Shown here: one piece after another, positions 28,201 to 43,586 of the stretch
Numbering within the stretch: position 1 is the stretch's first letter
Layout: every line of letters begins with the position of its first letter
DNA from: a virus
Strand: one strand, 5' to 3'
Length of the DNA stretch: 64,000 nucleotides
Virus genome (UHGV): UHGV-0286546
The notes under the pieces: generated by a model
Told to the model about the DNA's origin: nothing
The model's input: the letters and a program-made list of their open reading frames with translations, nothing else
Database searches by the model: none
Translations under genes and position numbers: made by a program

Positions 28201-28356
28201 TTAAAAAAAAATAATTATTATAAAAACTTTTCTAAAAATACTGTTCTAATGACTATGATTATACGTACTGAAAATAATAATAGTTTAGCGACAGATTTAG
28301 AAAAGCCTACAATCTGGCGACGTATTGTAATATAAAAACTGAATTTAAATATATGA

Positions 28357-28400
28357 AGTACGCCCCAGAAAAAAAAAATAAAAAAAATTCTGGGGTTTAT
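28357..28400 (+). terminator. terminator-like hairpin (CCCCAGAA-A-rich loop-TTCTGGGG + T run)
   Basis: Inverted repeat followed by TTTATTTTTTTC. Confidence 0.5.
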
Positions 28401-28535
28401 TTTTTTCGGTTTTACAAATAATAAATTTTCAGATATAAAATAATCATTCAAGAGTCAATAAAATGATTCTTTAGTTATAAGACATTGTGAATAGGAAATA
28501 ATATTAAACGAATTAGCCTTGGCAGCTAAACTGTT

Positions 28536-28574
28536 ATGTATTTGCCAAATAAAACAGAATATAAATATACATAA
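28536..28574 (+). CDS. candidate 12-codon leader mini-ORF (MYLPNKTEYKYT) upstream of tRNA cluster A
   Basis: ATG TAT TTG CCA AAT AAA ACA GAA TAT AAA TAT ACA TAA; codons largely match downstream tRNAs (Met, Leu, Pro, Asn, Thr-TGT, Glu); weaker case than 37719 and 43174 (see findings). Confidence 0.3.
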   Translation: MYLPNKTEYKYT

Positions 28575-28662
28575 CACCGGTAGTCTTAACGTTTATCTTA
28601 ACCGGCCTAGAGGGTAAAAGTAGATGTTTTTACTTAAAAATCTACGAAAGAAGCGTATCTAT

Positions 28663-28737
28663 CGCGGGGTAGAGCATTGGTAGATCACTAGGCTCATAAC
28701 CTAGAGGTAGGTGGTTCGATTCCATCCCCCGCAACCA
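28663..28737 (+). tRNA. tRNA-Met (anticodon CAT), possibly initiator-type (C1-A72 mismatch)
   Basis: Cloverleaf by eye: anticodon stem CTAGG/CCTAG, loop CTCATAA, T-loop TTCGATT, 3' ACCA encoded. Confidence 0.7.
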
Positions 28738-28800
28738 TTTTAGGTAGGAACAGCAATACATAACAAACTCAAACTTGAACTTTGACAGAATACTACCTAG
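28738..28800 (+). repeat. tRNA-trailer hairpin element, copy 1 (TTTTAGGTAGG...ACAGCAAT...ACTACCTAG); contains perfect TTGACA
   Basis: Second copy at 29098..29166, also immediately 3' of a tRNA; TAGGTAG/CTACCTA stem enclosing ~50 nt. Confidence 0.5.
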
Positions 28801-28816
28801 TTTTTATTTTAATTAC

Positions 28817-28903
28817 GCGCTCGTGGGGGAACAGGTAGACCCGTAAGACTTAAAATCTTATGTCCGTAGGGACGTGTCAGTTCGATTCTGACCGAGCGCA
28901 CCA
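28817..28903 (+). tRNA. tRNA-Leu (anticodon TAA), class II
   Basis: Acceptor GCGCTCG/CGAGCGC, anticodon loop CTTAAAA, long variable arm, T-loop TTCGATT, CCA encoded. Confidence 0.8.
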
Positions 28904-28915
28904 AAGTTTTTTTAT

Positions 28916-28989
28916 CGAGAACGTGGTGTAAGGGTAACACTCCTCGTTTGGGGCGAGGGATTGCCGTTCGAGTCGGACGTTCTCGACCA
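28916..28989 (+). tRNA. tRNA-Pro (anticodon TGG); T-arm folds poorly by eye
   Basis: Acceptor CGAGAAC/GTTCTCG, anticodon stem CCTCG/CGAGG with loop TTTGGGG, TTCGAGT T-loop, CCA encoded. Confidence 0.6.
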
Positions 28990-29011
28990 TTTGATTATTA
29001 TATTTTATTGT

Positions 29012-29087
29012 GCCGGCATCGACAAGCGGTTTAAGTCGTCTCCCTTTCACGGAGGAGTCACGGGTTCGAATCCCGTTGCTGGTACCA
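29012..29087 (+). tRNA. tRNA-Glu (anticodon TTC)
   Basis: Acceptor GCCGGCA/TGCTGGT (two G-U), D-stem CGAC/GTCG, anticodon loop CTTTCAC, T-arm ACGGG-TTCGAAT-CCCGT, CCA encoded. Confidence 0.7.
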
Positions 29088-29097
29088 TTTTATGATT

Positions 29098-29166
29098 TTT
29101 AGGTAGGTACAGCAATCAATTTCGCTTTGTAGCACCAGACTTTTAATCTGTTATAAAACTACCTAG
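29098..29166 (+). repeat. tRNA-trailer hairpin element, copy 2
   Basis: Shares TTTTAGGTAGGTACAGCAAT ... AACTACCTAG with copy 1. Confidence 0.5.
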
Positions 29167-29176
29167 TTAAAATCGT

Positions 29177-29252
29177 GGGGAATTAGCTCATCTGGGAGAG
29201 CGTCTGATTTGCATTCAGAAGGTGAGGAGTTCGAGTCTCCTATTCTCCACCA
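29177..29252 (+). tRNA. tRNA-Ala (anticodon TGC)
   Basis: GGGGAAT acceptor, D-arm AGCTCATCTGGGAGAGC, anticodon loop TTTGCAT, T-loop TTCGAGT, CCA encoded. Confidence 0.8.
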
Positions 29253-29397
29253 AATTTATGGAGGTTCTGTTAAGTATAGAGTAGTTAGAATATAAATTAG
29301 CTGATCCTAGGTATGTAAAAGCACTAATTAATTCAATGATACAAAATATACGATTAAATAACTTATATATGACACAGATATAGTTACCTCCGCCAAC

Positions 29398-29485
29398 GCC
29401 GACTTGCCAGAATTGGTTGAATGGAACGGATTTGTAATCCGTCGGAGTAATCCCATTGCAGGTTCGAATCCTGTGGTCGGCACCA
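29398..29485 (+). tRNA. aberrant class-II-length tRNA (88 nt), anticodon TGT (Thr) in a perfect 5-bp stem/7-nt loop but with a 15-nt extra arm; Tyr (GTA) register does not fold
   Basis: Acceptor GCCGACT/GGTCGGC, anticodon arm ACGGA-TTTGTAA-TCCGT, T-arm GCAGG-TTCGAAT-CCTGT, CCA encoded. Confidence 0.5.
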
Positions 29486-29574
29486 TTTTTCAAATGCTTT
29501 TTATTTCAGTTTATATAAAAGGTACTTATAAAAACAAGAGTATCATAGAATAAAACTTTTAGTTGTATTTTTAT

Positions 29575-29649
29575 TCTGACGTAGCCTAAAGGTTAGGCAG
29601 CAGACTGTTAATCTGCCCTATGCTGGTTCGAGTCCAGCCGTCAGAGCCA
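29575..29649 (+). tRNA. tRNA-Asn (anticodon GTT)
   Basis: Acceptor TCTGACG/CGTCAGA, D-stem GCCT/AGGC, anticodon arm GCAGA-CTGTTAA-TCTGC, T-arm CTGG-TTCGAGT-CCAG, CCA. Confidence 0.8.
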
Positions 29650-29789
29650 TTTTTTTTTTGTGGTAGTGTCGGTAAAATCTATCTTTATGAATGTTAATTG
29701 TTATATAGATGGATATTCCCGGTATATATGACACCGATATAGGGAGACTACCTCCTTTATTGAATTTACGTTTTTATTCTTAGCGATTT

Positions 29790-29867
29790 GGTCGTTTCGT
29801 TCAGTTGGTCTAGGACATCGCCCTGTCACGGCGAAGATCACGGGTTCGAGCCCCGTAACGACCGCCA
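29790..29867 (+). tRNA. tRNA-Asp (anticodon GTC)
   Basis: Acceptor GGTCGTT/AACGACC, anticodon arm TCGCC-CTGTCAC-GGCGA, T-arm CACGGG-TTCGAGC-CCCGT, CCA. Confidence 0.8.
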
Positions 29868-31591: not shown

Positions 31592-32329
31592 ATGTCAAAA
31601 TTTAAAGAAGTAGTAGAAAATGCTTTAAAAGAAAGAGGATTTTCTTTACAAAAACTAACAAATAATCTTGAGATAGATAGTCCGATATGTACGTGTTTTA
31701 TAACTGCATATTTAGAAACAAATGACAAGGAAACAAATATTGCTAATAACAACAAATTAGAATTAAATATTGTATCTCTCGGTTATGAATACGGTTATAA
31801 AAAAATCCTTGGTGGATATGTTTATTCAAATGGAACTTTTGCTAAAGAGCCTGGATTTTTAGTATCTTGTAAAAGAACTAATGTATTACCTGAAGATTTT
31901 AAAGAAGAAATGTTAGCTCTTGGCAGGAAATACAATCAAGAAACTATTTTACTAAAGTTACCAGGAGAAAAACCAGCTTACTATAATACCAGAGGTAATA
32001 AAATAGATGAAAAGGATATTGAATTCGCCTTTACAAAGCAGGTAGATCCAACAAAACCGAAAACACTTTATCCAAATGAAATTACAGCTTGGAGTAAAGG
32101 ATATACTCAATTACAAAAAGATGCAAACAAAGGTAAAAATCAAGCTATTGAATTGACCAATGAAAACTCTTCTGTTTTTGAATCGTTGATATTGACTGAT
32201 GAAGAAATCAATGAATTAAAAGAAGATACCAGAGAAAAATGTTTTTGTAGTGGCTCTGGGATATTAAGAATGGCTGCCTGTAGAGAACATTTGGGTTTAG
32301 AACCTTATCCTTGTCTCAAAAAGCGGTAA
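31592..32329 (+). CDS. member of MS(K/R)F(K/R)TIVEN-leader paralog family (245 aa)
   Basis: N-terminus MSKFKEVVENAL; body homologous to 30545..31123. Confidence 0.6.
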   Translation: MSKFKEVVENALKERGFSLQKLTNNLEIDSPICTCFITAYLETNDKETNIANNNKLELNIVSLGYEYGYKKILGGYVYSNGTFAKEPGFLVSCKRTNVLPEDFKEEMLALGRKYNQETILLKLPGEKPAYYNTRGNKIDEKDIEFAFTKQVDPTKPKTLYPNEITAWSKGYTQLQKDANKGKNQAIELTNENSSVFESLILTDEEINELKEDTREKCFCSGSGILRMAACREHLGLEPYPCLKKR

Positions 32330-32345
32330 TTTGAAAGTGTTTAAA

Positions 32346-32954
32346 ATGTCAAGCTTTAGAGAAATAGTAAATACTATTTTGAAGTCAGCTTTACTTGGTA
32401 AAAATCCTAATGTTGAATCATTAGCTATTATTACAGCTGAAGATTCCTTTGGTAAAAAAATTAACAGAAGAGACAATGCTACTCGATTGAAAGTTTTTAA
32501 GATACAATTGAAGCTAGGAGGTCATCCTTATGAAAACATTGTTGATAAATATGGAAATAAAGAGCATTCTTTTGTAATTTTTAATTTATCAAGATCTGCT
32601 GCTAAAAATTATGCAAAAGTATATGAGCAAGAATCGTTTATTTTTGGCATAAAGAATAAAGATGACATGTTATATGAATATTGGGAAACTGTAGATAATG
32701 GTAAAACTTATAATTTATCTAAAACTACAGATTTTATAAGAAATGAGCCAGAATTAGAAGATTATTTTTCTAGATTACATGATTATAAATTTAATATAGG
32801 CTTTGATTTTAATGAATCTATCGACGAAGAAACTGTAAGAAAATTAGAATCTATTACGACTCCAGAAGATAAGAAATGGATTAAAGAATATATTAATGAA
32901 GAACGTGTAGGTATGGCTTCTTATTTACATTATAAAAAGTTGTATAAAAATTAA
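32346..32954 (+). CDS. member of MSxFxxIVxN-leader paralog family (start at second ATG: MSSFREIVNTIL)
   Basis: Internal Met gives family-consensus N-terminus. Confidence 0.5.
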   Translation: MSSFREIVNTILKSALLGKNPNVESLAIITAEDSFGKKINRRDNATRLKVFKIQLKLGGHPYENIVDKYGNKEHSFVIFNLSRSAAKNYAKVYEQESFIFGIKNKDDMLYEYWETVDNGKTYNLSKTTDFIRNEPELEDYFSRLHDYKFNIGFDFNESIDEETVRKLESITTPEDKKWIKEYINEERVGMASYLHYKKLYKN

Positions 32955-33603: not shown

Positions 33604-33723
33604 GAGAGGGTAGCTCAGTCTGGTAGAGCAACGTAAAAAAGTATTTAGTATTTAAGTACGTTCAGCAACATATATTTTTGGTTGGTAACCCGTGTGTCGT
33701 AGGTTCAAATCCTACCCCTCTCA
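33604..33723 (+). tRNA. tRNA-like element with ~46-nt insertion replacing a canonical anticodon arm (intron-containing, disrupted or repurposed tRNA)
   Basis: Perfect acceptor GAGAGGG/CCCTCTC, canonical D-arm GCTCAGTCTGGTAGAGC and T-arm GTAGG-TTCAAAT-CCTAC, but 68 nt (33631..33698) between them with no foldable 17-nt anticodon arm; no encoded CCA. Confidence 0.45.
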
Positions 33724-34355
33724 ACAAGTTTTGGTTTGTTAGTTTAGATAGGCTATAATTAAAGTAAGTAAGTTTGGAAGTTACGACACAGACCAAATAA
33801 CCTATCGTTTCCAAATTATCTTTATCGTTGTCGTGAAGGATAAAGAGTGAAAAACTAACGTTAAAGTGACAAAAAGTATACTTAATTATCCAAAGTATTG
33901 CCAATATCACTTGAATTTATGGGTGTCGTGTTTTCGAAAGAGCATGAAGGTCAGGGTCAATCCCAAAAGAGTCACGAACGTGGATTTCATATTTTACCTC
34001 CACCTGCCCATAATTTTTTATGCTCCGTCGTAGTCTTGGTGACCACTAGTTGAATGTCTATAGCTCCAGTCAATTAGTATGGGAATACTGTTCGAATCAG
34101 TTACGGGGTACCAATTTTTATGAGTAGTTTATTAGTTCTTCTCGCCTTGGAAAATTGAACTAGTGAATAGTCATCTTGTAATGGTAAACATTCTTGACTG
34201 AAACTAAAGAAAAGTTTATATGTTTATTAGAGTAATATGGTAAGCCGCGGCTGAGACTTATAAGGGTAAGTAGATATATAGATGTAATGAAAGTTTTACC
34301 ACAGTATAAAGATTAGTAATATGAAGAAAGAATTAAATGACGCGAGGATAAAATA

Positions 34356-34562: not shown

Positions 34563-34650
34563 GGAGGAATGGCAGAGTGGCTTAATGCAGCGGTTTACTA
34601 AACCGTCGTACCGAAAGGTGCCGTGGGTTCAAATCCTACTTCCTCCGCCA
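34563..34650 (+). tRNA. class II tRNA (88 nt, Ser-like architecture) with non-canonical anticodon loop TTACTAA (ACT by standard register)
   Basis: Acceptor GGAGGAA/TTCCTCC, anticodon arm (G)CGGT-TTACTAA-ACCG(T), variable-arm hairpin GTACC-GAAA-GGTGC, T-arm GTGGG-TTCAAAT-CCTAC, CCA encoded. Confidence 0.5.
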
Positions 34651-34657
34651 ATTTATT

Positions 34658-34751
34658 AGGTCTGTCGTTCAATGGTTAGGACACTAGGCTTATACCCTAG
34701 CGAGCGTCTGATTAACGCGAAATCCCAGTTCGAGTCTGGGCGGACCTACCA
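34658..34751 (+). tRNA. 94-nt tRNA-like gene: anticodon arm CTAGG-CTTATAC-CCTAG (TAT) followed by a 23-nt extra arm that itself looks like an anticodon stem-loop (GCGT-CTGATTA-ACGC)
   Basis: Acceptor AGGTCTG/CGGACCT, D-arm GTTC-AATGGTTA-GGAC, T-arm CCCAG-TTCGAGT-CTGGG, CCA encoded. Confidence 0.45.
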
Positions 34752-34971: not shown

Positions 34972-35046
34972 TATTATTTCCGGTTTTACAATATTTTTAA
35001 CAAGACATATATTTGTTTATAGATTAACAGAAAAAAGGAAGTGGAT

Positions 35047-36531
35047 ATGTCTGATAATAAAACAATGACTGAAAAAGGTGCTATTACTAATCAATCTACA
35101 TTAGACAAAGTTGTAGATTGGTTTTATCATGGAGCCGCATTACGTAGAGAAAAAAACAAAGACCGTATTATAGCTTTGTTTGATGATGCTTTTAAACAGG
35201 ATAAAACCAAAGCATTGCGTATTTTATTTTATATTCGTGATATTCGTGGTGGTCAAGGTGAAAGACGCATTTTTAGAATTTGCTTAAATCATTTGGCAAA
35301 AATAGAATCTGCTTGGTTAAAAGACAATTTGGCATTAATTGCTGAATACGGCAGATATGATGATTATTTGTGCTTGCTTGATACAGAAATTAAAAGTGCT
35401 GTAATTGATTTCGTTAAAGCACAATTAGATAAAGATATTGCTGCAATAGATAGCAATACACCTATTTCATTGCTTGCCAAATGGATGCCTTCCGTTACAA
35501 CCAAGAATAAAGAAAAAAGAAGATATTTAAATGCTCTTTTGAATTCTGGTAAATTTGGCACAGTAAAAAATTATAGACAAACGTTATCTAAACTTCGTGA
35601 TAAATTAAATATTGTTGAAAAGAATCTTTGCAATAAAGCCTTTGCTGAAATTGAATATTCTAAAGTTTCTTCTAATGCAATGTCTAAGTATTCAAAAACT
35701 AGAATTTCATCTGGATTAGCTGGTACTTTTTGGCGCAATGACTTAGATAGATTTAAAATGTATTTAGACGCTGTTAAAAACGGTAAAACAATCGACGGCA
35801 AAGAAGTAAAAATAAATGCAAAAACCTTATATCCATATGATGTTATTACAAAATATATGAGTGGTTATAGTATAAGTCATCAAGAAGATCCTGCAGCGGA
35901 AGCTCAATGGAATGCTTTACCTGATTATGTACCAGAGATTAACGGCATTGTAATTTATGATACTTCGGGTTCAATGTATGGATTACCTATGGCTGTATCT
36001 TTGTCGTTGGCTATTTATATTGCTGAAAGAAATAAATCAGAAGTTTGGCGTAATTATGTTATTCCATTCTCATCTAATGCGACTTGGAAAAAAGTAAAGG
36101 GTAACAATTTAGTAGAAAAAATTGAATCTATTTATACTGGAGATTGTTCAAATACTAATTTACAAGCAGCCTTTGATCTTATTTTAGGTAAAGCTATATA
36201 TGCGCAAGTACCTAAAGAAGATATGCCAAAACAGCTGATTATTATTAGTGATATGGAATTTGATTCGGTTTCTTCTAATAACCAAACTAATTATGAAGCT
36301 ATAAAAAGCAAATATAAGAAAGCTGGTTATGACTTACCACAATTAATCTGGTGGAACGTTGAATCAAGAAGCAATCAAACACCGATTACAGTAAATGATA
36401 AAAATTGTTTATTGCTTTCTGGCTGTTCACCGGTAGTTATGCAAGTAGCTTTGGGTGGTTCATACGATTTTATGGAAGCAATCGATAAAATTATTAACCA
36501 AGAACGTTATAGTTGCATCAATTATAATTAG
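35047..36531 (+). CDS. von Willebrand factor A (vWA) domain protein with DUF2828/TROVE-like N-terminal region
   Basis: MIDAS motif IVIYDTSGSMYG; N-terminal ALRILFYIRDIRGGQGERRIF block reminiscent of DUF2828-type proteins (uncertain); ATG at 35047 preferred over GTG at 35041. Confidence 0.6.
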   Translation: MSDNKTMTEKGAITNQSTLDKVVDWFYHGAALRREKNKDRIIALFDDAFKQDKTKALRILFYIRDIRGGQGERRIFRICLNHLAKIESAWLKDNLALIAEYGRYDDYLCLLDTEIKSAVIDFVKAQLDKDIAAIDSNTPISLLAKWMPSVTTKNKEKRRYLNALLNSGKFGTVKNYRQTLSKLRDKLNIVEKNLCNKAFAEIEYSKVSSNAMSKYSKTRISSGLAGTFWRNDLDRFKMYLDAVKNGKTIDGKEVKINAKTLYPYDVITKYMSGYSISHQEDPAAEAQWNALPDYVPEINGIVIYDTSGSMYGLPMAVSLSLAIYIAERNKSEVWRNYVIPFSSNATWKKVKGNNLVEKIESIYTGDCSNTNLQAAFDLILGKAIYAQVPKEDMPKQLIIISDMEFDSVSSNNQTNYEAIKSKYKKAGYDLPQLIWWNVESRSNQTPITVNDKNCLLLSGCSPVVMQVALGGSYDFMEAIDKIINQERYSCINYN

Positions 36532-36650
36532 TTCTTAATAACTATTAAAGACTGTGAAAAACGTACAGCAATCTATAAAATATTTTATATTGAAGACTTG
36601 CTGTGTTTTAACAGCATGATAAGGTATTAATTTCGGTTAATACCTGTTTA

Positions 36651-36715
36651 TAAGGAAGGGCCGAAACAAAAGTTTTTCGTTAAAAGACAGTCTTTACGGT
36701 CCTTCCTTTTTTTTA
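36651..36715 (+). terminator. long hairpin + T8 terminator after vWA gene
   Basis: AAGGAAGGGCCG...CGGTCCTTCCTTTTTTTT. Confidence 0.6.
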
Positions 36716-37643: not shown

Positions 37644-37650
37644 TAAAAAA

Positions 37651-37680
37651 TTGCTTTACAAATAAAAATTTTATGATAAT
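37651..37680 (+). promoter_or_regulatory. sigma70-like promoter TTGCTT-N17-TGATAAT (module copy 1)
   Basis: Near-consensus -35/-10 spacing; homologous copy at 43106..43136; related TTGTTTTAC motifs at 36999 and 39397. Confidence 0.55.
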
Positions 37681-37718
37681 ATAAATATATAAATTAAAAA
37701 AGAAGGGTTCTATAAACT

Positions 37719-37778
37719 ATGATGAAAATGATGTTTAAATATATTAGATTTTATAAACAGCTCAATCGAGGTGTATAA
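37719..37778 (+). CDS. 19-codon leader peptide MMKMMFKYIRFYKQLNRGV (candidate attenuator leader for downstream tRNA cluster)
   Basis: RBS AGAAGGG; first 13 codons are only ATG, AAA, TTT, TAT, ATT, AGA = codons of the downstream phage tRNAs Met/Lys/Phe/Tyr/Ile/Arg(TCT). Confidence 0.5.
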   Translation: MMKMMFKYIRFYKQLNRGV

Positions 37779-37811
37779 TTTTCTATTACGTTTTTATCAG
37801 ATAGAATTTAA

Positions 37812-37850
37812 AAGCCTCGAGAATAAGAATCGAGGCTTTATTATTATAAG
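37812..37850 (+). terminator. intrinsic terminator (AAGCCTCGA-N9-TCGAGGCTT + T-rich) between leader ORF and tRNA-Tyr
   Basis: 9-bp perfect stem; leader 3' end contains identical TCGAGG able to compete for the 5' arm. Confidence 0.6.
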
Positions 37851-37855
37851 TTTTT

Positions 37856-37940
37856 GGTTGGGTCGCATAGCGGCAATTGCTGGAGACTGTAAATCTCTTC
37901 TCTTCGGAGTTCGTAGGTTCGAGTCCTACCCCAACCACCA
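37856..37940 (+). tRNA. tRNA-Tyr (anticodon GTA), class II
   Basis: Acceptor GGTTGGG/CCCAACC, anticodon arm GGAGA-CTGTAAA-TCTCT, long variable arm, T-arm GTAGG-TTCGAGT-CCTAC, CCA. Confidence 0.8.
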
Positions 37941-37945
37941 TTTAT

Positions 37946-38023
37946 AGAGAGGTAACTCAGTTGGTCTAGAGTATTCGCCTGATATGCGAAGAGTCGTGAG
38001 TTCGAGTCTCACCCTCTCTACCA
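37946..38023 (+). tRNA. tRNA-Ile (anticodon GAT)
   Basis: Acceptor AGAGAGG/CCTCTCT, anticodon arm TTCGC-CTGATAT-GCGAA, T-arm GTGAG-TTCGAGT-CTCAC, CCA. Confidence 0.8.
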
Positions 38024-38042
38024 AATTATTTAGGGAGCATTT

Positions 38043-38600
38043 TTGTTGAGTTATAACAGATTAAAAAATTTTAGAAAATTACGAAAACTAGCTATATTAC
38101 AAGGATTTGGCGGAAAATGTCAATGTTGTGGTTATAACAAATGCGTTCAAGCTTTAGAATTTCATCATTTAAATTGTAATGATAAAGAATTTTCTATTAG
38201 TACCATTATGAATAAAAACTGGAACGAAATAAAAAATGAATTAAAAAAATGTATTTGTGTGTGTGCCAATTGTCATAGAGAAATACACAATAATTTATTA
38301 GAAATTGATGTTAATAAACAATATTTTGACGAAAACGCCGTACAAGATTATGAATGTGCTATAAATAAGGTAACAAAATATAGCAAATGTCCAATTTGCG
38401 GAGCATTAAAACCAGAATATAACAAATTTTGTTCTCGAAAATGTGCCGCGAAATCAAGAGATAGAGTAAATTGGGAACAATACGAAAGTTTAGTTTATAT
38501 TATTGATAATAAAATTGAATCTATTAATAGTATTGCTTCTAAATTAAATATTTCTTGGCAAGCTGTAAAGAAAAGATATAAAAAATTAAAATCGCAATAA
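38043..38600 (+). CDS. HNH homing endonuclease (185 aa, TTG start with AGGGAG RBS) inserted inside tRNA operon
   Basis: CQCCGYNKCVQALEFHHLNCN ... CANCHREIHNN = HNH/zinc-binding signature. Confidence 0.7.
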   Translation: MLSYNRLKNFRKLRKLAILQGFGGKCQCCGYNKCVQALEFHHLNCNDKEFSISTIMNKNWNEIKNELKKCICVCANCHREIHNNLLEIDVNKQYFDENAVQDYECAINKVTKYSKCPICGALKPEYNKFCSRKCAAKSRDRVNWEQYESLVYIIDNKIESINSIASKLNISWQAVKKRYKKLKSQ

Positions 38601-38617
38601 AGATTTGAATTATTTAT

Positions 38618-38693
38618 GGTCATGTAGCTCAGTTAGTAGAGCACCAGACTGAAAATCTGGGTGTCGTTGGGGCGGAACCAACCGTGACCACCA
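38618..38693 (+). tRNA. tRNA-Phe (anticodon GAA) with atypical T-loop GGCGGAA instead of TTCGAAT
   Basis: Acceptor GGTCATG/CGTGACC, anticodon arm CCAGA-CTGAAAA-TCTGG, T-stem GTTGG/CCAAC, CCA encoded. Confidence 0.65.
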
Positions 38694-38699
38694 TTTATT

Positions 38700-38775
38700 G
38701 GAAGTATAGCTCAGCCGGTAGAGCAACGAGCTTTTAACTCGTGGGTCATGGGTTCGAATCCCTTTGCTTCCACCA
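38700..38775 (+). tRNA. tRNA-Lys (anticodon TTT)
   Basis: Acceptor GGAAGTA/TGCTTCC, anticodon arm ACGAG-CTTTTAA-CTCGT, T-loop TTCGAAT, CCA. Confidence 0.8.
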
Positions 38776-38783
38776 ATTTTTAT

Positions 38784-38860
38784 GGCGATGTAGTTCAGCC
38801 GGTTAGAACGTATCCCTCATAAGGATAAGGTCACTTGTTCGAGTCAAGTCATCGCTACCA
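38784..38860 (+). tRNA. tRNA-Met or Ile2 (anticodon CAT), second CAT tRNA
   Basis: Acceptor GGCGATG/CATCGCT, anticodon arm TATCC-CTCATAA-GGATA, T-loop TTCGAGT, CCA. Confidence 0.75.
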
Positions 38861-38913: not shown

Positions 38914-39390
38914 ATGCCTAGAATTATAAAACATACAGATAAAGTTTTAGTAGAACGCTGTGAAAGTTATTGGTTAAGTCTACGACATGTAAATAGTTAT
39001 TTACCAGGGATAGAAATTTTTAAAAATCCGTCAAAGTCTGATCTTTTAAAAATGTTAAGACAAACATCTACAATACGAGGATTTGCTGATCACGAAGATG
39101 TAATTGTATGGAATGGAGAAGAAGAAATTCATGGTACAATCGAAAAGGCAATACGACAAAAGTATGGTGATGATACTTTTTCAGACGGTAAGCATAGGAT
39201 AGCAAGATTTCAAGTATTTAGAGATAAAAATAACCTTTTAGGATTTGAAGACAATGAGGGTCCCGATACAGATGAGGTAACGAATGAGTTAAAACAAACA
39301 CTTTTGGGTAACCCAAATTTCACTAAACTCTTTTCGAAAGAAGAAATACTAAATGCACAATCTCATCACATTATAGACGATGAAGAATAA
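38914..39390 (+). CDS. hypothetical protein (158 aa); leaderless paralog of 42557..43102
   Basis: Shares blocks LKERCES, TIRG(F/L)AD(H/N)EDVI(V/I)W(N/D)G, NPNFT(K/R)LFS(K/E)EEILNA(Q/D)SH with 42557..43102. Confidence 0.6.
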   Translation: MPRIIKHTDKVLVERCESYWLSLRHVNSYLPGIEIFKNPSKSDLLKMLRQTSTIRGFADHEDVIVWNGEEEIHGTIEKAIRQKYGDDTFSDGKHRIARFQVFRDKNNLLGFEDNEGPDTDEVTNELKQTLLGNPNFTKLFSKEEILNAQSHHIIDDEE

Positions 39391-39452: not shown

Positions 39453-39529
39453 GGATTCTTAGCTCAATTGGATAGAGCAATAGCCTTCTAAGCTATGGGT
39501 TGCAAGTTCGAATCTTGCAGAATCCGCCA
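39453..39529 (+). tRNA. tRNA-Arg (anticodon TCT)
   Basis: Acceptor GGATTCT/AGAATCC, anticodon arm ATAGC-CTTCTAA-GCTAT, T-arm TTGCAAG-TTCGAAT-CTTGCAG, CCA. Confidence 0.8.
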
Positions 39530-39577
39530 TTTTTTTATTATTTTCTGTTTTACATTTTTTAATTATGGTGTATTTTA

Positions 39578-39855
39578 TTAATATCTGTTATGGCGGAAGT
39601 ATAGACGCTAGATGGAGTGTGGAGAGAGGAAGTGAATCCGGAATAGCTTACCTCGCAGATGAAAAGAATACGGCCGAAAGCGGTGAATAATCGCAATCGG
39701 AGAAACCGTAGAACGGAGGCTCAGACGGGATGCAAACTAACCAATTAAGTCACAATTCGCGAAGTGATGTCATCGAGCCCAAAACAAAGACCACACGTTC
39801 TAAAGGGTTGGTATTTTCTTAATAGTATATCATGGCTTTAGATAACAGATATTAA
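39578..39855 (+). ncRNA. candidate structured non-coding RNA / IR-bounded element: GC-enriched 250-nt ORF-free core flanked by perfect 14-bp inverted repeats TTAATATCTGTTAT / ATAACAGATATTAA
   Basis: No ORF >=60 aa on either strand; GC much higher than flanks; sits in tRNA island directly 3' of tRNA-Arg (T4 encodes stable RNAs C/D in its tRNA region, a precedent). Confidence 0.4.
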
Positions 39856-40350: not shown

Positions 40351-41106
40351 ATGAGTAGATTCAGAACAATTGTAGAAAATATCATAAAAACTTTTACAGA
40401 AGACGCGTTCTCAGACAGAGATAGATATAAAGAGGCAATTGATGTATATCTTAATGTATTAGATAAAATGGAACCGTCTCTAAATACAGATAAAATTATT
40501 ACAGATAGCGCAGAATGTGTCAGTTTACAAGTAGATACACCTCATGGTCCTCTAATTGTTAGTGTTTCTCTAGATAAAGATGTACATAATGCCGGTGTAT
40601 ATTATCCAGAATACAACGCTATTGAACTTAACATACACGGTATAATGGATTTGAGTGATGAAACTATAAACATGACAGATCCGATTACCGGTGAAGAAAA
40701 TGTTACAGGTATAAATGCTAAATACTTATATAAAATTTTATCTTCTCGTGCCGTTCAAGATACATTTATTCACGAATATACCCATTTTATAGATGATAAA
40801 ACAAAGTACTCCATGAAAAAGCAAGCAGATACATATAAAAATATAGATTATTTCAATAAACCTTACGAAAGAAATGCGTTTTATATTGCTTGGTTAAATA
40901 AAATCGTTTCATATACCTATAAAAAATATGGTAAAATAATGAAAGAGTTGACACCAGATGAACGATTAAATTTTTTAAGAAATGCTTGGAAAGAAGACGA
41001 AGAATTTGTAGAATATTATAATAAACTTGAACCTGCTGCAAAGAAAAGATTTATGTCAAGATTATATAATTATTTTAGTACTGATTTCTGGTCGGATGCT
41101 GCATAA
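40351..41106 (+). CDS. leader-family member (MSRFRTIVENIIK) with HExxH zinc-metallopeptidase motif (251 aa)
   Basis: DTFIHEYTHFIDD = HEXXH; conserved N-terminal decapeptide. Confidence 0.55.
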   Translation: MSRFRTIVENIIKTFTEDAFSDRDRYKEAIDVYLNVLDKMEPSLNTDKIITDSAECVSLQVDTPHGPLIVSVSLDKDVHNAGVYYPEYNAIELNIHGIMDLSDETINMTDPITGEENVTGINAKYLYKILSSRAVQDTFIHEYTHFIDDKTKYSMKKQADTYKNIDYFNKPYERNAFYIAWLNKIVSYTYKKYGKIMKELTPDERLNFLRNAWKEDEEFVEYYNKLEPAAKKRFMSRLYNYFSTDFWSDAA

Positions 41107-41123
41107 CAAAAGGTAGATTTAAA

Positions 41124-41708
41124 ATGAGTAAAATAAGAACAATTATTGAAAATATCCTTTATGAAGGTGATAAAAAAATATTTGATAAAGAATCTGGATA
41201 CAATAGCTCTAAAGATGAGTTATATATTTATGATTTACTTAAAAAGAAATGGCCAGATGTTAAAATGAGCTATACCAGAGATGATTTTATTAATCCAGAA
41301 ACTCATCGTCATTTTCAATTAGATTTTTACGTACCTTCTGAAAATATGGGAATACAGGTAAATAAACATTGGAAACACGGTAGAAGAGTATATGATCCAT
41401 CTGATCCAAATTGTCAAAAAGATGTTCGTTGGTTAAAAAATAAAGGTGGAGATTTTTATAACAAAGTTTTGCATACCTGGACCGAATTAGATCCTATTAA
41501 ACGAGAAGTTGCAAAGCAAATAGGTATGAAATACGTAGAAATCTTTAATTTAGACGAATTTAATACTTGGTACAATAATCCAGAATTAACATACGAAGAA
41601 TATAAACAGGCTCCAGATTCTTTACAATACGACAGTGATGAATATTTTGCTGCAAAAGCTAATAATCGTGATATTTATGGTAATGATTCCGATCCGTTAG
41701 GTGCATAA
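41124..41708 (+). CDS. leader-family member (MSKIRTIIENILYE), possible nuclease-like fold (194 aa)
   Basis: Conserved N-terminus; FQLDFYVPSENMGIQVNKHWKH loosely PD-(D/E)xK-like. Confidence 0.5.
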   Translation: MSKIRTIIENILYEGDKKIFDKESGYNSSKDELYIYDLLKKKWPDVKMSYTRDDFINPETHRHFQLDFYVPSENMGIQVNKHWKHGRRVYDPSDPNCQKDVRWLKNKGGDFYNKVLHTWTELDPIKREVAKQIGMKYVEIFNLDEFNTWYNNPELTYEEYKQAPDSLQYDSDEYFAAKANNRDIYGNDSDPLGA

Positions 41709-41774
41709 TTACGGTTTTACTTTTATTTTAATATAAATTATTATATATAAAATTTAAAATAGATAGGTATAAGA

Positions 41775-42530
41775 ATGAGTAAGTTTAAAACCATCGTAGA
41801 AAATGCATTATATGAAGTTGGAGCATTGCCTTTTCCAAAAAATATTCAAGTATATGCTAAAAAAGAAAAAGTAAATTTATTTGAAATTAAATATTTACGA
41901 AAAGATGGTAAATTGGATGAACCAGGTGGAATTTGTTATGCTAAAACTGGAATTTGGAAAGATATCCGTGAAAATGAAAATGCTTTTATACGCACGCAAT
42001 TAGATGAAAAATTTAGACCAGATCAAGGCAATTTTAGTAAATATCGTGGTGGTATGATTGTATTTGCTCTGAGTGTCAATACTGTCATTGATAAATTGAA
42101 TTATAATCAATTAGTTGCAGAAATTAAAAAGATTTGGTATACCTTAATAAACAATACCTTTAAAAATAAAATGATTAAAGGTGTAGTTAATTCTATGAAA
42201 AATACTTATGCTAACATTGAAGATGCAGAGATCGGAGGTATTACAATAGGTAATAACTTTAAAGGCATGTATTTTGATGGTAATAAAGTATATAATGATA
42301 AATCAACGAGTTTAGAAATAAATGACATTTCTAGTGAGATGTTGTTATTACTAGCTATTGAAATTTGTAAAGCATTTCGTCAAGATAGCGTTTTAATCAA
42401 AGATTTCAATAAAAATAAATTCTTTTTGTGTGATTCTGAAGAAGTAGAAGGCGAAATTCCAGAAGAAAAAATAAAAAACGCTTCTAAAGACTTAGCAAAC
42501 TTAAAGAATGTAAATACAAAAACAAAATAA
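41775..42530 (+). CDS. leader-family member (MSKFKTIVENALYE), 251 aa hypothetical
   Basis: Conserved N-terminus. Confidence 0.55.
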   Translation: MSKFKTIVENALYEVGALPFPKNIQVYAKKEKVNLFEIKYLRKDGKLDEPGGICYAKTGIWKDIRENENAFIRTQLDEKFRPDQGNFSKYRGGMIVFALSVNTVIDKLNYNQLVAEIKKIWYTLINNTFKNKMIKGVVNSMKNTYANIEDAEIGGITIGNNFKGMYFDGNKVYNDKSTSLEINDISSEMLLLLAIEICKAFRQDSVLIKDFNKNKFFLCDSEEVEGEIPEEKIKNASKDLANLKNVNTKTK

Positions 42531-42556
42531 TGTATGATTTAGCAGAAAGTATAATT

Positions 42557-43102
42557 ATGAGTAGATTTAGAACAATTGTTGAAAATGCTATTGCCAAAGT
42601 AAATAAAAAACTTTTAAAAGAACGTTGTGAATCGCTTTTTATAGCACCAATGAGTCTACATAATGATGAGCGAGAAGTAGTAGAAGTACTTTATAATCCT
42701 TCGAAAGCAGAATTCAATAGAGCATTTAGAGAATGGGGTACTATACGAGGACTTGCTGACAATGAAGATGTAATTATTTGGGATGGATATAAAGCTGTTC
42801 ATGATTCAGTAAAAGAACAATTAGAAAAACAGTATGGTGCAACCTTTCCAACTAATTACGGGACATTATGCAGATTTGAAACAACACGCGAATATCCATT
42901 AATGCTCGAAGATGATACAAAACAGTATAGTCATGGTAAAGAATTAGATCCAGTAAAGCAAACCTTATTTAAAAATCCTAACTTTACACGATTATTTTCA
43001 GAAGAGGAAATACTAAATGCTGATTCTCATAATTTTGCTAATGGAGAATTCGGTGAGTTTCAAAATGATCCAGAAATATTAAAAAAGTTTGGATATGATT
43101 AA
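42557..43102 (+). CDS. leader-family member (start at MSRFRTIVENAIAK; track ORF starts 27 nt earlier), paralog of 38914..39390
   Basis: Family N-terminus at internal ATG; body homologous to 38914..39390. Confidence 0.55.
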   Translation: MSRFRTIVENAIAKVNKKLLKERCESLFIAPMSLHNDEREVVEVLYNPSKAEFNRAFREWGTIRGLADNEDVIIWDGYKAVHDSVKEQLEKQYGATFPTNYGTLCRFETTREYPLMLEDDTKQYSHGKELDPVKQTLFKNPNFTRLFSEEEILNADSHNFANGEFGEFQNDPEILKKFGYD

Positions 43103-43105
43103 AAA

Positions 43106-43136
43106 TTGCTTTACAGATATAAAATTTTATGATATT
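43106..43136 (+). promoter_or_regulatory. sigma70-like promoter TTGCTT-N18-TGATATT (module copy 2)
   Basis: ~90-bp region homologous to 37647..37735. Confidence 0.5.
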
Positions 43137-43173
43137 GTATAAATATAAAATAAAAAAGAGAGTTCTATAAATT

Positions 43174-43239
43174 ATGATTAATACGAATATTTTACATTGT
43201 TGGTGTCATCATTTACTTCACAGAGGTGTTGATGCTTAG
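43174..43239 (+). CDS. 21-codon leader peptide MINTNILHCWCHHLLHRGVDA (candidate attenuator leader for Cys-His-Trp tRNA cluster)
   Basis: RBS AAAAGAGAG; CAT TGT TGG TGT CAT CAT ... CAC = 7 of 21 codons are His/Cys/Trp, exactly the three tRNAs immediately downstream. Confidence 0.5.
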   Translation: MINTNILHCWCHHLLHRGVDA

Positions 43240-43272
43240 TTATACGTGTTAATTCATAAAATTATTAGTTTC

Positions 43273-43308
43273 AAGCCTCTAGGATAATTACTTTCTAGAG
43301 GTTTTTTT
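43273..43308 (+). terminator. intrinsic terminator (AAGCCTCTAG-loop-CTAGAGGTTT + T7) between leader ORF and tRNA-Cys
   Basis: 10-bp stem + TTTTTTT; leader 3' end AGAGGTG can pair with the CCTCT 5' arm. Confidence 0.65.
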
Positions 43309-43313
43309 ATTAT

Positions 43314-43387
43314 GGACTGTTGGTAGAGTGGTTATACGTTAGTCTGCAAAACTAATTACACAAGTTCGAATCTTGTACAGTCCTCCA
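43314..43387 (+). tRNA. tRNA-Cys (anticodon GCA), U73 discriminator
   Basis: Acceptor GGACTGT/ACAGTCC, anticodon arm TTAGT-CTGCAAA-ACTAA, T-arm CAAG-TTCGAAT-CTTG, TCCA end. Confidence 0.75.
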
Positions 43388-43430
43388 ATTTTACGCATAG
43401 AAGTATATATCAATAAAATGGTCTATTCTT

Positions 43431-43506
43431 GTGTGCGTAGCTTAATTGGTAAAGCGTCGGTTTGTGGTACCGAAGGATACGAGTTCGAATCTCGCTGCTC
43501 ACCCCA
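43431..43506 (+). tRNA. tRNA-His (anticodon GTG), C73 discriminator, no encoded G-1
   Basis: Anticodon arm TCGGT-TTGTGGT-ACCGA, D-arm GCTT-AATTGGTA-AAGC, T-arm ACGAG-TTCGAAT-CTCGC, one acceptor mismatch. Confidence 0.7.
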
Positions 43507-43512
43507 CTTTAT

Positions 43513-43586
43513 AGGGACTTAGTTTAATGGTAAAACACTAGTCTCCAAAACTAGATATAGGAGTTCGATTCTCTTAGTCCTTGCCA
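43513..43586 (+). tRNA. tRNA-Trp (anticodon CCA)
   Basis: Acceptor AGGGACT/AGTCCTT, anticodon arm CTAGT-CTCCAAA-ACTAG, T-arm AGGAG-TTCGATT-CTCTT, GCCA end. Confidence 0.75.

Follow-up and report, generated by a model that had tools for sequence, protein, structure and literature searches.

Our analysis suggests that the phage modules described here are probably ribosome-mediated (leader-peptide) transcription attenuators that gate tRNA clusters, and that the codons through which each would sense translation are those read by the tRNAs it gates. The window analysed, 64,000 nucleotides of UHGV virus genome UHGV-0286546 from a large uncultured phage, carries one such module before tRNA-Tyr (W1) and two further ones, W2 before Cys-His-Trp tRNAs and a weaker W0 before an eight-tRNA cluster at 28663. 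The same anatomy was confirmed in all three window modules and in two modules of L096, two of L098 and one of L099, which are diverged metagenomic relatives. This anatomy, the co-variation of leaders with tRNA sets, the base-pair covariation of both alternative helices and the geometry of the parts are direct observations, and the proposal is built on them.

Module W1 (37646-37855) consists of a promoter-like site, a Shine-Dalgarno (SD) sequence, a 19-codon ORF, a 10-bp terminator and, 16 nt beyond the hairpin, the gene for tRNA-Tyr (Table 1). An earlier note on this DNA had described a promoter-like site, ribosome-binding site (RBS), ORF, terminator and tRNAs here, and all of these elements are present in the sequence, the tRNAs being called by ARAGORN and Rfam. 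Its promoter, TTGCTT (37651-56) and TGATAAT (37674-80) separated by 17 nt, can also be read there, but TTTACA with TG-n-TAATAT (37674-82) is the likelier pair of -35 and extended -10 elements, since the block CTTTACAAATA is conserved in the seven-module alignment; the block AAAAAnTGCTTTACAAATAnAAA of the promoter-like site is kept in seven modules from four phages. The SD/initiation block occurs in two exact copies in the window, each preceding a leader. A consensus scan missed the W1 terminator because its loop is 9 nt long. Between tRNA-Ile and tRNA-Phe lies an HNH gene that is missing from L004-L007 and L009 and is a mobile insertion. Whether tRNA-Arg(TCT) belongs to the W1 unit is uncertain, because it stands behind another ORF and is preceded by a promoter-like TTTTAC...TATATT of its own. 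In both W1 and W2 the terminator follows the promoter by 160 nt and abuts tRNA genes that have no other promoter-like site, an arrangement that makes sense only if termination is conditional.

Table 1. Coordinates of module features in the window
Feature	Position	Strand	Details and basis
W1 promoter-like site	37646..37682	+	A-tract; -35 TTTACA 37655-60; TG 37674-75; -10 TAATAT 37677-82; from sequence and seven-module conservation
W1 SD and initiation block	37700..37724	+	SD AAGAAGGG 37700-07; initiation block GTTCTATAAACTATGATG 37707-24; near-invariant across 7 modules
W1 leader ORF	37719..37778	+	19 codons, MMKMMFKYIRFYKQLNRGV, then stop; cognate block, codons 1-13 (37719-37757)
W1 antiterminator hairpin (predicted)	37765..37820	+	UCGAGGU 37766-72 (codons 16-19) pairs with GCCUCGA 37814-20 (terminator 5' arm)
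W1 intrinsic terminator (predicted)	37811-37839, U-rich tail to 37855	+	AAAGCCUCGA / UCGAGGCUUU; 10-bp stem, 9-nt loop
W1 tRNAs	37856..38860	+	Tyr(GTA) 37856-37940, Ile(GAT) 37946-38023, Phe(GAA) 38618-38693, Lys(TTT) 38700-38775, Met(CAT) 38784-38860; ARAGORN, Rfam
HNH ORF between tRNA-Ile and tRNA-Phe	38043-38600	+	PHROGs
tRNA-Arg(TCT), cognate to leader AGA	39453..39529	+	ARAGORN, Rfam; behind 158-aa ORF 38914-39390
W2 promoter-like site, SD and leader	43101..43239	+	leader ORF 43174-43239, MINTNILHCWCHHLLHRGVDA, then stop
W2 antiterminator and terminator (predicted)	43217..43304	+	leader 43217-28 pairs with terminator 5' arm 43273-84; terminator 43273-43304
tRNAs under putative W2 control	43314..43586	+	Cys(GCA), His(GTG), Trp(CCA); ARAGORN, Rfam
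W0 leader ORF	28255..28335	+	MIIRTENNNSLATDLEKPTIWRRIVI, then stop; SD degenerate
W0 antiterminator 5' strand and terminator (predicted)	28312..28403	+	strand 28312-27 ends 5 nt before stop; terminator 28355-28403
Second promoter-like site, spacer and cluster A	28410..29867	+	promoter-like site 28410-40; 220-nt spacer; tRNAs Met, Leu(TAA), Pro, Glu, Ala, Thr, Asn, Asp

The structural evidence for a switch lies at the junction of leader and terminator. In W1, TCGAGG (37766-71) near the end of the ORF is the same as the terminator 3' arm and complementary to CCTCGA (37814-19) in the 5' arm, in which the earlier note saw a possible antiterminator/terminator pair. Folding bears this out: the two hairpins are mutually exclusive, with an antiterminator of -15.1 kcal/mol, whose upper helices fall within the post-stop spacer, against a terminator of -14.2 kcal/mol, and the leader/terminator-arm duplex scores -10.8 kcal/mol (null P = 0.011). 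The same pairing is found with different sequences in all seven homologous modules, where the leader 3' end pairs with the terminator 5' arm over 7-10 bp, the best leader partner of that arm always lies 2-17 nt before the stop (null P 0.0045-0.094 per module), and the antiterminator strand copies the terminator 3' arm nearly base for base. In the covariation alignment (A3), 98% of antiterminator cells and 100% of terminator cells are paired, percentages that are partly so by construction since the segments were chosen for pairing, and double changes occur at five of seven antiterminator pairs and six of seven terminator pairs. Across modules, antiterminator energies range from -12.7 to -22 kcal/mol and those of terminators from -11.6 to -15.3 kcal/mol, the latter combining 8-15-bp stems with U-tracts, 21-41 nt past the leader stop.

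The earlier note also supposed that a stalled ribosome would leave the TCGAGG segment free, and folding under a ribosome mask agrees. In W1 the antiterminator is predicted for every A-site position from codon 1 to codon 12 and disappears from codon 14 onwards, and in the homologous modules it is kept for stalls on matched codons and lost at the last codons or stop in six of seven; the exception is MB, whose antiterminator strand finishes 17 nt short of the stop codon, so that a ribosome at the stop would not cover it. The comparison with trp-type attenuation therein made holds for the antiterminator/terminator pair. A trp-like 1:2 anti-antiterminator (pairing of initiation and post-stop regions) is predicted in W1, W2, L98b and L069 and not in MA, MB, L99 and L98a. 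Predicted in only half of the modules, this hairpin was rejected as a conserved part, and the untranslated state may therefore read through.

The second line of evidence is the correspondence between leader codons and downstream tRNAs. The W1 ORF reads ATG ATG AAA ATG ATG TTT AAA TAT ATT AGA TTT TAT AAA CAG CTC AAT CGA GGT GTA TAA, and its first 13 codons had been called cognate to the tRNAs that follow. This is true of this strain, but codon 4 is ACG (Thr) in seven of the eight other strain-level copies, and the first four or so codons are part of a conserved initiation block, GTTCTATAAAnTATGATG, common to modules with other tRNA sets, so that they are weak evidence of matching. Strain variants alter only codon 4 (M/T), TTT/TTC and TAA/TAG. 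Over the whole leader 13 of 18 codons are cognate against a background of 0.32 (P = 6e-4), with 6 and 5 of 18 in the other two frames. Taken alone, W1 is not significant after multiple testing over the 822-ORF screen, because its matched K, I, F, Y and M are common in a 30% GC genome; the match holds in context because of the W2 result, the co-variation in homologues and this frame specificity.

In the W2 leader, Cys, His and Trp codons make up 7 of 20, where the background frequency is 0.04 (P between 8e-6 and 1.5e-5 according to the set used as background), which places it first of 416 ATG mini-ORFs at the codon level and second of 822 at the amino-acid level. W0 represents all eight amino acids of its tRNA set, and 13 of its codons 5-19 are cognate to cluster A; its whole-leader match is not significant (P = 0.35) because that set is large, and its antiterminator duplex scores -13.7 kcal/mol (null P = 0.03). 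A nearer mini-ORF, MYLPNKTEYKYT (28537-28575), was considered as the cluster A leader and rejected, having neither SD nor terminator, and W0 at 28255 was preferred.

The match of codons to tRNAs extends to related phages, in which leader amino-acid content co-varies with tRNA cluster content. Four homologous modules, located through promoter/RBS similarity or synteny with the peptide ignored, track their own sets (Fisher P = 5e-7), and of 20,000 permutations one did as well as the true pairing. Module by module, and bearing in mind that orthologous modules are not independent of one another, P for the leader match was 1.5e-5 for W2, 5e-4 for MB, 2e-5 for L99, 1e-4 for L98b, 0.03 for MA, 4e-6 for L069 and, over the whole leader, a non-significant 0.16 for L98a; W2 and L069 survive Bonferroni correction over 822 ORFs. 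When every leader is scored against every tRNA set, the diagonal is best or tied with an orthologue's identical set, except that L98a scores higher against the W1 set. Each leader contains every amino acid of its own set, with the exception of Val in MA; one of them, KKCWHMFGFAGK, precedes Ala-Phe-Lys-Met-Cys-Gly-Trp-His tRNAs. The tracking reaches the level of codon choice, with ATT beside tRNA-Ile(GAT) in W1 versus ATA beside tRNA-Ile(TAT) in L98a, and GGA beside Gly(UCC) in MB versus GGC beside Gly(GCC) in L99. Over codons 1-22, MB and L99 differ by five synonymous changes and one non-synonymous change, with a post-stop spacer 59% identical, a pattern pointing to coding-type constraint on the leader.

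The layout occurs in one family of AT-rich phages of about 235 kb and in a phage of about 200 kb with unrelated sequence, L069, whose leader, MVFNALLSLSLLSSWSNQLR, lies upstream of Ser-Leu-Trp-Leu-Leu tRNAs; its presence in two unrelated sequence backgrounds suggests independent origins. No antiterminator was found at the L069 leader end (P = 0.42), and its terminator arm is able to pair with the SD/AUG region instead; other copies of the promoter in the L069 phage run directly into tRNAs or 60-70-aa genes. The related loci are not assembly artefacts of one sequence, as the L096 tRNA-Phe and tRNA-Lys genes share only about 57-63% identity with their L099 counterparts. The gap from terminator to first tRNA is 7-30 nt in most modules, being 9-30 nt in five of the seven homologous ones, 92 nt in MA and about 260 nt in W0, and in these last two a second promoter-like site lies within it, so that control there would not be absolute. 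Homologous modules were not found in IMG/VR with two promoter/RBS patterns or in INPHARED by blastn, and nhmmer over 121 loci returned nothing beyond the seven known ones. L016 and L017, the closest DUF2828 relatives, have tRNAs, and leaders were not found there; nor were modules found near the DnaJ homologues of L013, L014, L015, L100-L103 and L120. As search anchors, the 158-aa ORF returned near-identical strains only and an 82-aa ORF nothing of use. In a general screen of 252 tRNA-upstream regions within 80 viral loci anchored on DUF2828, nothing stood out apart from the window modules and L069, and the device is thus not universal.

From these sequence features we infer promoter activity, a transcription start, leader translation and regulated termination, as well as the direction in which the switch responds and what triggers it physiologically. 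A host-type RNA polymerase would initiate at the sigma-70-like promoter, and a ribosome would load at the conserved SD/AUG and enter a leader of 19-28 codons whose middle holds at least one codon for nearly every downstream tRNA. The last few codons would serve as the antiterminator 5' strand, with the 5' arm of the intrinsic terminator as its 3' strand. With fast decoding, the ribosome would run onto the antiterminator strand or the stop, melting the antiterminator and allowing the terminator to form, and transcription would stop before the tRNAs; if any gated tRNA were scarce, uncharged or cleaved, the ribosome would stall upstream, the antiterminator would persist and polymerase would read through into the tRNA genes. 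The outcome would be a demand-driven, self-limiting supply of exactly those tRNAs that are limiting. On balance, we lean towards the broader view that some large phages possess an unrecognised class of closed-loop "tRNA homeostats", in which each cluster is switched on by a stall on its own codon barcode.

A competing account keeps the switch but gives it another purpose or sign, such that the leader would be a general sensor of translation or aminoacylation status (starvation, ribosome availability, coupling or Rho access), or stalling would favour termination. We consider this unlikely. It draws on the fact that a missing and an uncharged tRNA are indistinguishable to a leader, and on the closeness of the last matched codons to the antiterminator, which a ribosome stalled there would partly cover; with no conserved anti-antiterminator, the untranslated default also appears in mask folding to be read-through in W1, MA and MB, so that on this account translation as such would trigger termination. 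A general sensor, however, would not need a separate codon set for each cluster, and the sets observed follow tRNA gene content down to the choice of Ile and Gly codons. Moreover, a distance of more than 15 nt separates most matched codons from the antiterminator strand downstream, which a ribosome stalled on them would leave free.

It is still less probable, and in our view quite improbable, that the product of the mini-ORF is a small peptide with a function of its own, perhaps in the membrane or in regulation, the hairpin being a leaky terminator or RNA-stability element and the likeness to the tRNAs incidental or a matter of codon bias. Phage tRNA regions hold many small ORFs, the leaders are hydrophobic or basic and conserved between relatives, and the residues matched in W1 are the commonest in an AT-rich genome. 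A conserved peptide fits poorly, however, with the comparison of W1 and L98a, in which composition is kept and order permuted, with the 3' (C-terminal) part conserved as nucleotides in another frame; this argues against a functional peptide. Enrichment of the rare residues C, H and W is confined to leaders ahead of Cys, His and Trp tRNAs, paralogous modules within one genome encode unrelated peptides, and changes at the 3' end of the leader go together with changes in the terminator arm.

Direct sensing by the RNA, in which the leader would bind tRNAs by codon-anticodon pairing without a ribosome, is very improbable. Codons complementary to downstream anticodons do stand beside a terminator/antiterminator pair, as in T-box leaders, but neither a T-box (RF00230; no hit at the gathering threshold in the window or at E <= 1 in the modules) nor any other riboswitch family was detected with Rfam, there is no conserved bulge for binding the tRNA acceptor, and the matched codons share a single reading frame, with a conserved SD/AUG in front of them and an in-frame stop after them. 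We also know of no precedent for 8-13 different specifiers in one leader. That promoter, hairpin and tRNAs merely adjoin by chance, amid short ORFs abundant in AT-rich spacers, is scarcely credible: the region shows no excess of promoter-like or terminator-like sites over shuffled sequence and about 0.36 hits are expected at the W1 P among 822 ORFs, but W2 and L069 pass Bonferroni correction over those ORFs, each of four homologous modules, located independently, fits the tRNA set that follows it, the match is frame-specific, synonymous differences exceed non-synonymous ones and the helices co-vary.

We thus return to leader-peptide attenuation, for which the classical models are the trpL, hisL, pheL and leuL attenuators of amino-acid biosynthetic operons described by Yanofsky and colleagues. 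As in those systems, the phage modules have a short SD-led ORF (its translation being predicted) with relevant regulatory codons, an intrinsic terminator ahead of the regulated genes and a mutually exclusive antiterminator whose 5' strand overlaps the ORF end, such that ribosome position would select the hairpin; an unregulated promoter with an ordinary terminator does not describe them, the competing helix co-varying and leader composition tracking the tRNAs. Unlike those systems, they are phage-borne, they have a predicted 1:2 pause or anti-antiterminator hairpin in only half of the cases, their leaders devote one or two codons to each of 3-13 different amino acids where the classical ones have a run for a single residue, and they would regulate tRNAs rather than enzymes, so that the product would feed back on the sensor directly. 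A scan of the whole window with Rfam found only tRNAs above the gathering threshold, which none of His_leader, Leu_leader, Thr_leader and Trp_leader reached; His_leader gave 21.1 bits on W2 (E = 0.17, against a threshold of 49) and no hit on W1. On W2, OmrA-B as well as His_leader matched below threshold, and these hits were attributed to its terminator and His codons.

Multivalent attenuation is known from the thr leader, with Thr and Ile codons, and from the ilvGMEDA and ilvBN leaders, with Ile, Leu and Val codons, in which likewise a single leader senses several amino acids or tRNAs. Those leaders serve two or three amino acids of a shared pathway, whereas phage sets such as A, F, K, M, C, G, W and H have no metabolic logic and mirror the adjacent tRNAs. 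The pheST attenuator, with its pheM leader, and T-box riboswitches control aminoacyl-tRNA synthetase genes and resemble the phage modules in that a component of the decoding apparatus is regulated by the state of its cognate tRNA. Their targets are synthetases and those of the phage modules tRNA genes, and T-boxes bind uncharged tRNA directly, with no need of a ribosome, whereas the phage modules have no T-box signature. Mycobacterial polycysteine leaderless sORF attenuators are reported to sense cysteine for cysteine-metabolism operons (bioRxiv 10.1101/834739), and are similar in using short ORFs rich in one rare codon as sensors of operon expression; they differ in mechanism and targets, and are not reported to involve tRNA genes. 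The same class of cargo, phage tRNAs that stand in for host ones destroyed by anticodon nucleases or lost in host shut-off, is the subject of three papers on phage tRNA arrays in counter-defence or codon compensation (eLife 2023 PMC10264068; Nat Commun 2024 PMC11555353; Nature 2024 PMC11464382). These papers address tRNA function, and the text of PMC10264068 nowhere mentions a leader, attenuator, promoter or terminator.

Literature and full-text searches returned no earlier description of leader attenuators gating phage tRNA clusters. To our knowledge, no case of leader-peptide attenuation of tRNA genes has been described before, and the modules are best read as ribosome-mediated attenuators of the trp type whose target is new, probably closing a loop on tRNA supply. 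The regulation of phage tRNA genes is largely unknown, and whether they serve codon compensation or evasion of tRNA-targeting immunity is actively debated. If our proposal is correct, phages keep watch on the tRNA pool and adjust each cluster separately. They would make homeostat tRNAs as needed, whenever anticodon-nuclease defences cleave host tRNAs, host shut-off degrades them or they are too scarce for the codon usage of the phage, and would end synthesis once supply recovers. A cis-acting sensor that gauges decoding capacity one codon at a time and switches on a tRNA array would be a new regulatory layer and a minimal autoregulatory loop, with the product acting as ligand for the sensor that controls it. 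It would tie counter-expression by the phage to anticodon-nuclease defences directly and in a way open to testing. It would also be a programmable part, as swapping leader codons should change the triggering tRNA shortage and yield a tRNA/codon biosensor. For annotation, the correspondence would offer a rule by which to find unannotated regulatory mini-ORFs and to predict which non-canonical tRNA-like genes function. For instance, the leader of MB contains an Ala codon, which led to a tRNA-Ala-like gene that had not been called.

The earlier note had described a leader ORF whose codons match the tRNAs encoded next, and this observation was confirmed in the sequence: a promoter-like site, SD, ORF, and hairpin lie at 37646-37855 (module W1), with the tRNAs directly after them, and TCGAGG (37766-71) has the sequence of the W1 terminator's 3' arm and is the complement of the 5' arm. 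The window, 30% GC and from a large uncultured myovirus with genes for tail sheath, DnaB, and further helicases, is not closely related to any isolated phage and carries 20 tRNAs between 28.6 and 43.6 kb (ARAGORN). A second copy, W2, shares ~80% identity with W1 across promoter, UTR, SD, and first codons, and GAGGTGT at the end of the leader and AAGCCTC as a terminator arm occur in both; Cys, His, and Trp fill 7/20 W2 leader codons versus a genomic frequency of 0.04. Searching the window with the conserved initiation block revealed a third, more degenerate module, W0, in which 13 of leader codons 5-19 are cognate and the amino acids of its cluster are all represented (8/8), with a whole-leader match that is not significant (P = 0.35). 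A second promoter-like site lies downstream of the terminator in W0 and in MA, a module of a related phage, and the tRNA-Arg(TCT) after W1 may be transcribed from its own promoter.

Features of the leader modules in the window (W), in relatives L096 (MA, MB), L098 (L98a, L98b), and L099 (L99), and in the unrelated phage L069; pairings are leader strand:terminator 5' arm
Module	Feature	Position	Description
W1	SD		AAGAAGGG
W1	Leader ORF	37719-37778	19 codons, MMKMMFKYIRFYKQLNRGV (stop)
W1	Spacer		32 nt, between leader ORF and hairpin
W1	Hairpin	37811-37839	10 bp, U-rich tail
W1	tRNAs		tRNA-Tyr 16 nt after hairpin, then Ile(GAT), mobile HNH gene, Phe, Lys, Met
W1	Downstream end		after Met, 158-aa ORF, then Arg(TCT)
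W1	Pairing		UCGAGGU:GCCUCGA
W2	Leader	43174-43239	MINTNILHCWCHHLLHRGVDA (stop)
W2	Terminator	43273-43304	then tRNA-Cys, -His, -Trp
W0	Leader	28255-28335	MIIRTENNNSLATDLEKPTIWRRIVI (stop)
W0	Terminator	28355-28403	then second promoter-like site, then Met-Leu-Pro-Glu-Ala-Thr-Asn-Asp
MA	Leader, tRNAs		MMKMILTYSDSNNQPREPRLTGLLLS; Val Arg Leu Ser Arg Thr Asn Asp Glu Met Pro Ile Tyr
MA	Pairing		UGACGGGUUU:AAACUCGUCA
MB	Leader, tRNAs		MMINLVKKCWHMFGFAGKTSGGVNYLAK; uncalled Ala(UGC)-like cloverleaf, then Phe Lys Met Cys Gly(UCC) Trp His
MB	Pairing		CGGAGGUG:CACCUCCG
L99	Leader, tRNAs		MMINMVKKCWHMFGFAGKTSGGNA; Ala Phe Lys Met Cys Gly(GCC) Trp His
L98a	Leader, tRNAs		MMNNVMKKYFRIYKDSSIEVNE; Tyr-like, Lys, Phe, Ile(TAT)
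L98b	Leader, tRNAs		MMKNVKLHCWHCFLLRRERC; Cys, His, Trp-like
L98b	Pairing		GCAGGGA:UCCUUGC
L069	Promoter		TTGACA-17-TATAAT, perfect; the genome has at least 25 copies
L069	SD		AGGAG
L069	Leader		MVFNALLSLSLLSSWSNQLR (stop)
L069	Terminator		15 bp; tRNA-Ser(GCT) 7 nt on, then Leu(TAA), Trp, Leu(TAG), Leu(CAA)

We compared the match with chance by screening 822 mini-ORFs in 252 tRNA-upstream regions of 80 DUF2828-anchored viral loci and the window. At the amino-acid level the L069 ORF ranked first (P = 4e-6), W2 second (P = 8e-6), and W1 third (P = 4e-4); the first two pass Bonferroni correction over the screen, and W1 by itself fails, its matched residues (K, I, F, Y, and M) being frequent in an AT-rich genome. 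In every module the codon match is found solely in the ORF's own frame (13/18 for W1 versus 6/18 and 5/18 in the others; 7/20 for W2 versus 0/20 and 2/20).

Diverged metagenomic relatives gave further instances. A metagenome scan with the promoter-plus-RBS pattern found L096 and L097, from a phage so diverged that blastn aligns just one of its tRNAs to the window, and L098 and L099 were reached via DnaJ homologues. The earlier note had proposed testing whether leaders in related phages follow their adjacent tRNAs, and they do: for four modules found independently of the peptide the combined match is Fisher's P = 5e-7, and when tRNA sets were shuffled among eight modules the observed fit was equalled in 1 of 20,000 trials. 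Leaders score best on their own tRNA set or tie with an orthologue's identical set, except that of L98a, which scores higher on the W1 set; all amino acids of each set occur in its leader, bar Val in MA. The correspondence extends to codons, with Ile as ATT beside Ile(GAT) in W1 and ATA beside Ile(TAT) in L98a, and the core Gly as GGA beside Gly(UCC) in MB and GGC beside Gly(GCC) in L99. Six of the first 22 codons differ between MB and L99, five of them synonymously, and their post-stop spacers share a mere 59% identity; the W1 and L98a leaders have the same composition in permuted order, and the 3' portion CAGCTCAAT(C/T)GAGGTG is kept between them but in a different frame. The synonymous changes, permuted order, and frame-shifted conservation point to selection on the codons present and on an RNA element rather than on the peptide sequence. 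Modules are missing from the nearest DUF2828 relatives and from several anchored on DnaJ, so the device is not universal; no homologous module was found in IMG/VR (promoter/RBS patterns) or INPHARED (blastn).

The antiterminator/terminator pair suggested for W1 recurs in all the homologous modules. In 7/7 the best partner of the terminator 5' arm within the leader is the ORF 3' end, 2-17 nt short of the stop, with 7-10 bp formed (-9 to -15 kcal/mol; P 0.0045-0.094 per module versus random windows of the same genome), and the antiterminator strand copies the terminator 3' arm almost base for base. In a hand-anchored alignment of the 7-bp cores, the antiterminator is 98% paired with double-sided changes at 5/7 pairs (covariation score 0.86 versus 0.29 shuffled) and the terminator 100% paired with double-sided changes at 6/7 (score 0.95); since the segments were picked for pairing, the independent information is in the double changes and constant position, not the percentage paired. 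Whole antiterminator hairpins (-12.7 to -22 kcal/mol) are transcribed ahead of the terminators (-11.6 to -15.3 kcal/mol).

Folding the transcript as far as the terminator loop under a 29-nt ribosome mask predicts the trp-type geometry envisaged for W1: the antiterminator forms with the A site at codons 1-12 (W1, W2) or codon 9 (MA, MB) and is lost with the ribosome at the last codons or stop; MB is the exception, its stop being 17 nt past the antiterminator strand. The permissive zone holds the matched codons, and the tail without matches supplies the antiterminator strand. A 1:2 anti-antiterminator conserved across the modules was not found, leaving read-through as the possible default of an untranslated leader. 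We infer the transcription start, the translation of the leader, and the direction and magnitude of the response.

Co-variation of leaders with tRNA sets, together with base-pair covariation of the alternative helices, thus supports the attenuator interpretation. The modules appear to be a variant of classical leader-peptide attenuation, five of whose defining features they share, with a new target; they belong to none of the Rfam leader families nor to the T-box family. What is new is that tRNA genes are the target, which makes the loop self-referential, and that the leader forms a multi-codon barcode, covering as many as 12 amino acids and mirroring gene content, not a metabolic pathway. Our literature search found no description of such tRNA-gene control in phages or bacteria. 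Recent studies show phage tRNAs rescuing infection from tRNA-cleaving defences (PMC10264068, PMC11555353, PMC11464382), a role that a stall-triggered switch would fit and might serve.

The L069 module, an independent instance on a 201-kb IMG/VR contig whose DUF2828 protein is just 37% identical to that of the window, has Leu, Ser, or Trp at 12/19 leader codons. No antiterminator was seen at its leader end, and its terminator arm could pair alternatively with the SD/AUG region; we treat it as an analogous device with a putative switch. In L069 (13430-13432 and 368) the leader stop is TAG and amber-suppressor-type tRNAs called Pyl(CTA) are encoded, as they are in several other DUF2828-bearing phages (L067, L070, L085-L087, L093-L094). 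We speculate that recoding of TAG late in infection, if it occurs, would let the ribosome pass this stop into the terminator, a second route to opening the switch.

Several further observations concern the modules and the tRNA genes. W2 (43206-43309) gave sub-threshold matches to the enterobacterial His_leader RF00514 (21.1 bits, E = 0.17) and OmrA-B (27.5 bits); we rejected membership, the matches probably reflecting His codons and terminator geometry. ARAGORN left non-canonical genes uncalled in L096 (reverse complement 10250-10332), L098 (695-785, 3630-3700), and L099 (4011-4081), which manual folding resolved as Ala(UGC)-like with an odd T-loop, class II Tyr(GUA), Trp(CCA)-like, and Gly(GCC), the last alone found by Rfam (45.6 bits); the leader has a matching amino acid for each, so leaders can help to tell which of these atypical tRNA-like genes are real. 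Two tRNA-like sequences in the window (33604-33725, 34020-34117) have good acceptor and T arms and were uncalled by ARAGORN and Rfam; the first has an insertion of ~55 nt within or close to the anticodon arm (hairpin 33630-33660), possibly an intron or a sign of a split or permuted tRNA. The tRNAs at 34563-34751 are unusually long (88 and 94 nt) and are called Ser(ACT), whose A34 anticodon is odd for Ser, and Ile(TAT); this pair is also found in L015 and L096, and it lacks a leader module.

Apparently structured, GC-rich non-coding stretches beside tRNA genes (39560-39800, 33740-34020), in surroundings that are otherwise 30% GC, match no Rfam family at gathering threshold and could be intron or ribozyme remnants or small RNAs of unknown type. 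A 190-250-aa protein family without PHROG match (conserved N-terminus MS.FRTIVEN...; 31592-32954, 40351-43102) has at least six tandem paralogues interleaved with the tRNA clusters, and its copy number varies among strains L001-L006. A DUF2828/DUF7788 protein (TROVE/Ro60-like, vWA) is encoded within the tRNA region (35041-36531), followed by a long GC-rich stem-loop and U-tract (36590-36715; AAGGAAGGGCCG...CGGTCCTTCCTTTTTTTT) with no Y-RNA match in Rfam; tRNA arrays very often lie within 10 kb of its gene in the 80 IMG/VR loci that were retrieved by way of this protein, which hints at a Ro/Y-RNA-like RNA quality-control module tied to phage tRNA islands.

Strains also differ within the controlled units. 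In L001 (15623-15700) and L003 (12000-12077), unrelated sequence replaces the W2 promoter (window 43085-43160), following an upstream insertion of extra genes (one ORF of 285 aa, one S-AdoMet-lyase-like); both strains still have the SD, leader, and terminator as well as the tRNAs, and the attenuator would there act on read-through transcripts. The HNH homing-endonuclease ORF between tRNA-Ile and tRNA-Phe (38043-38600) shows a presence/absence polymorphism within the attenuator-controlled unit: the window, L001-L003, and L010 have it, and L004-L007 and L009 lack it, with 234 nt rather than 672 separating the starts of the two tRNAs.
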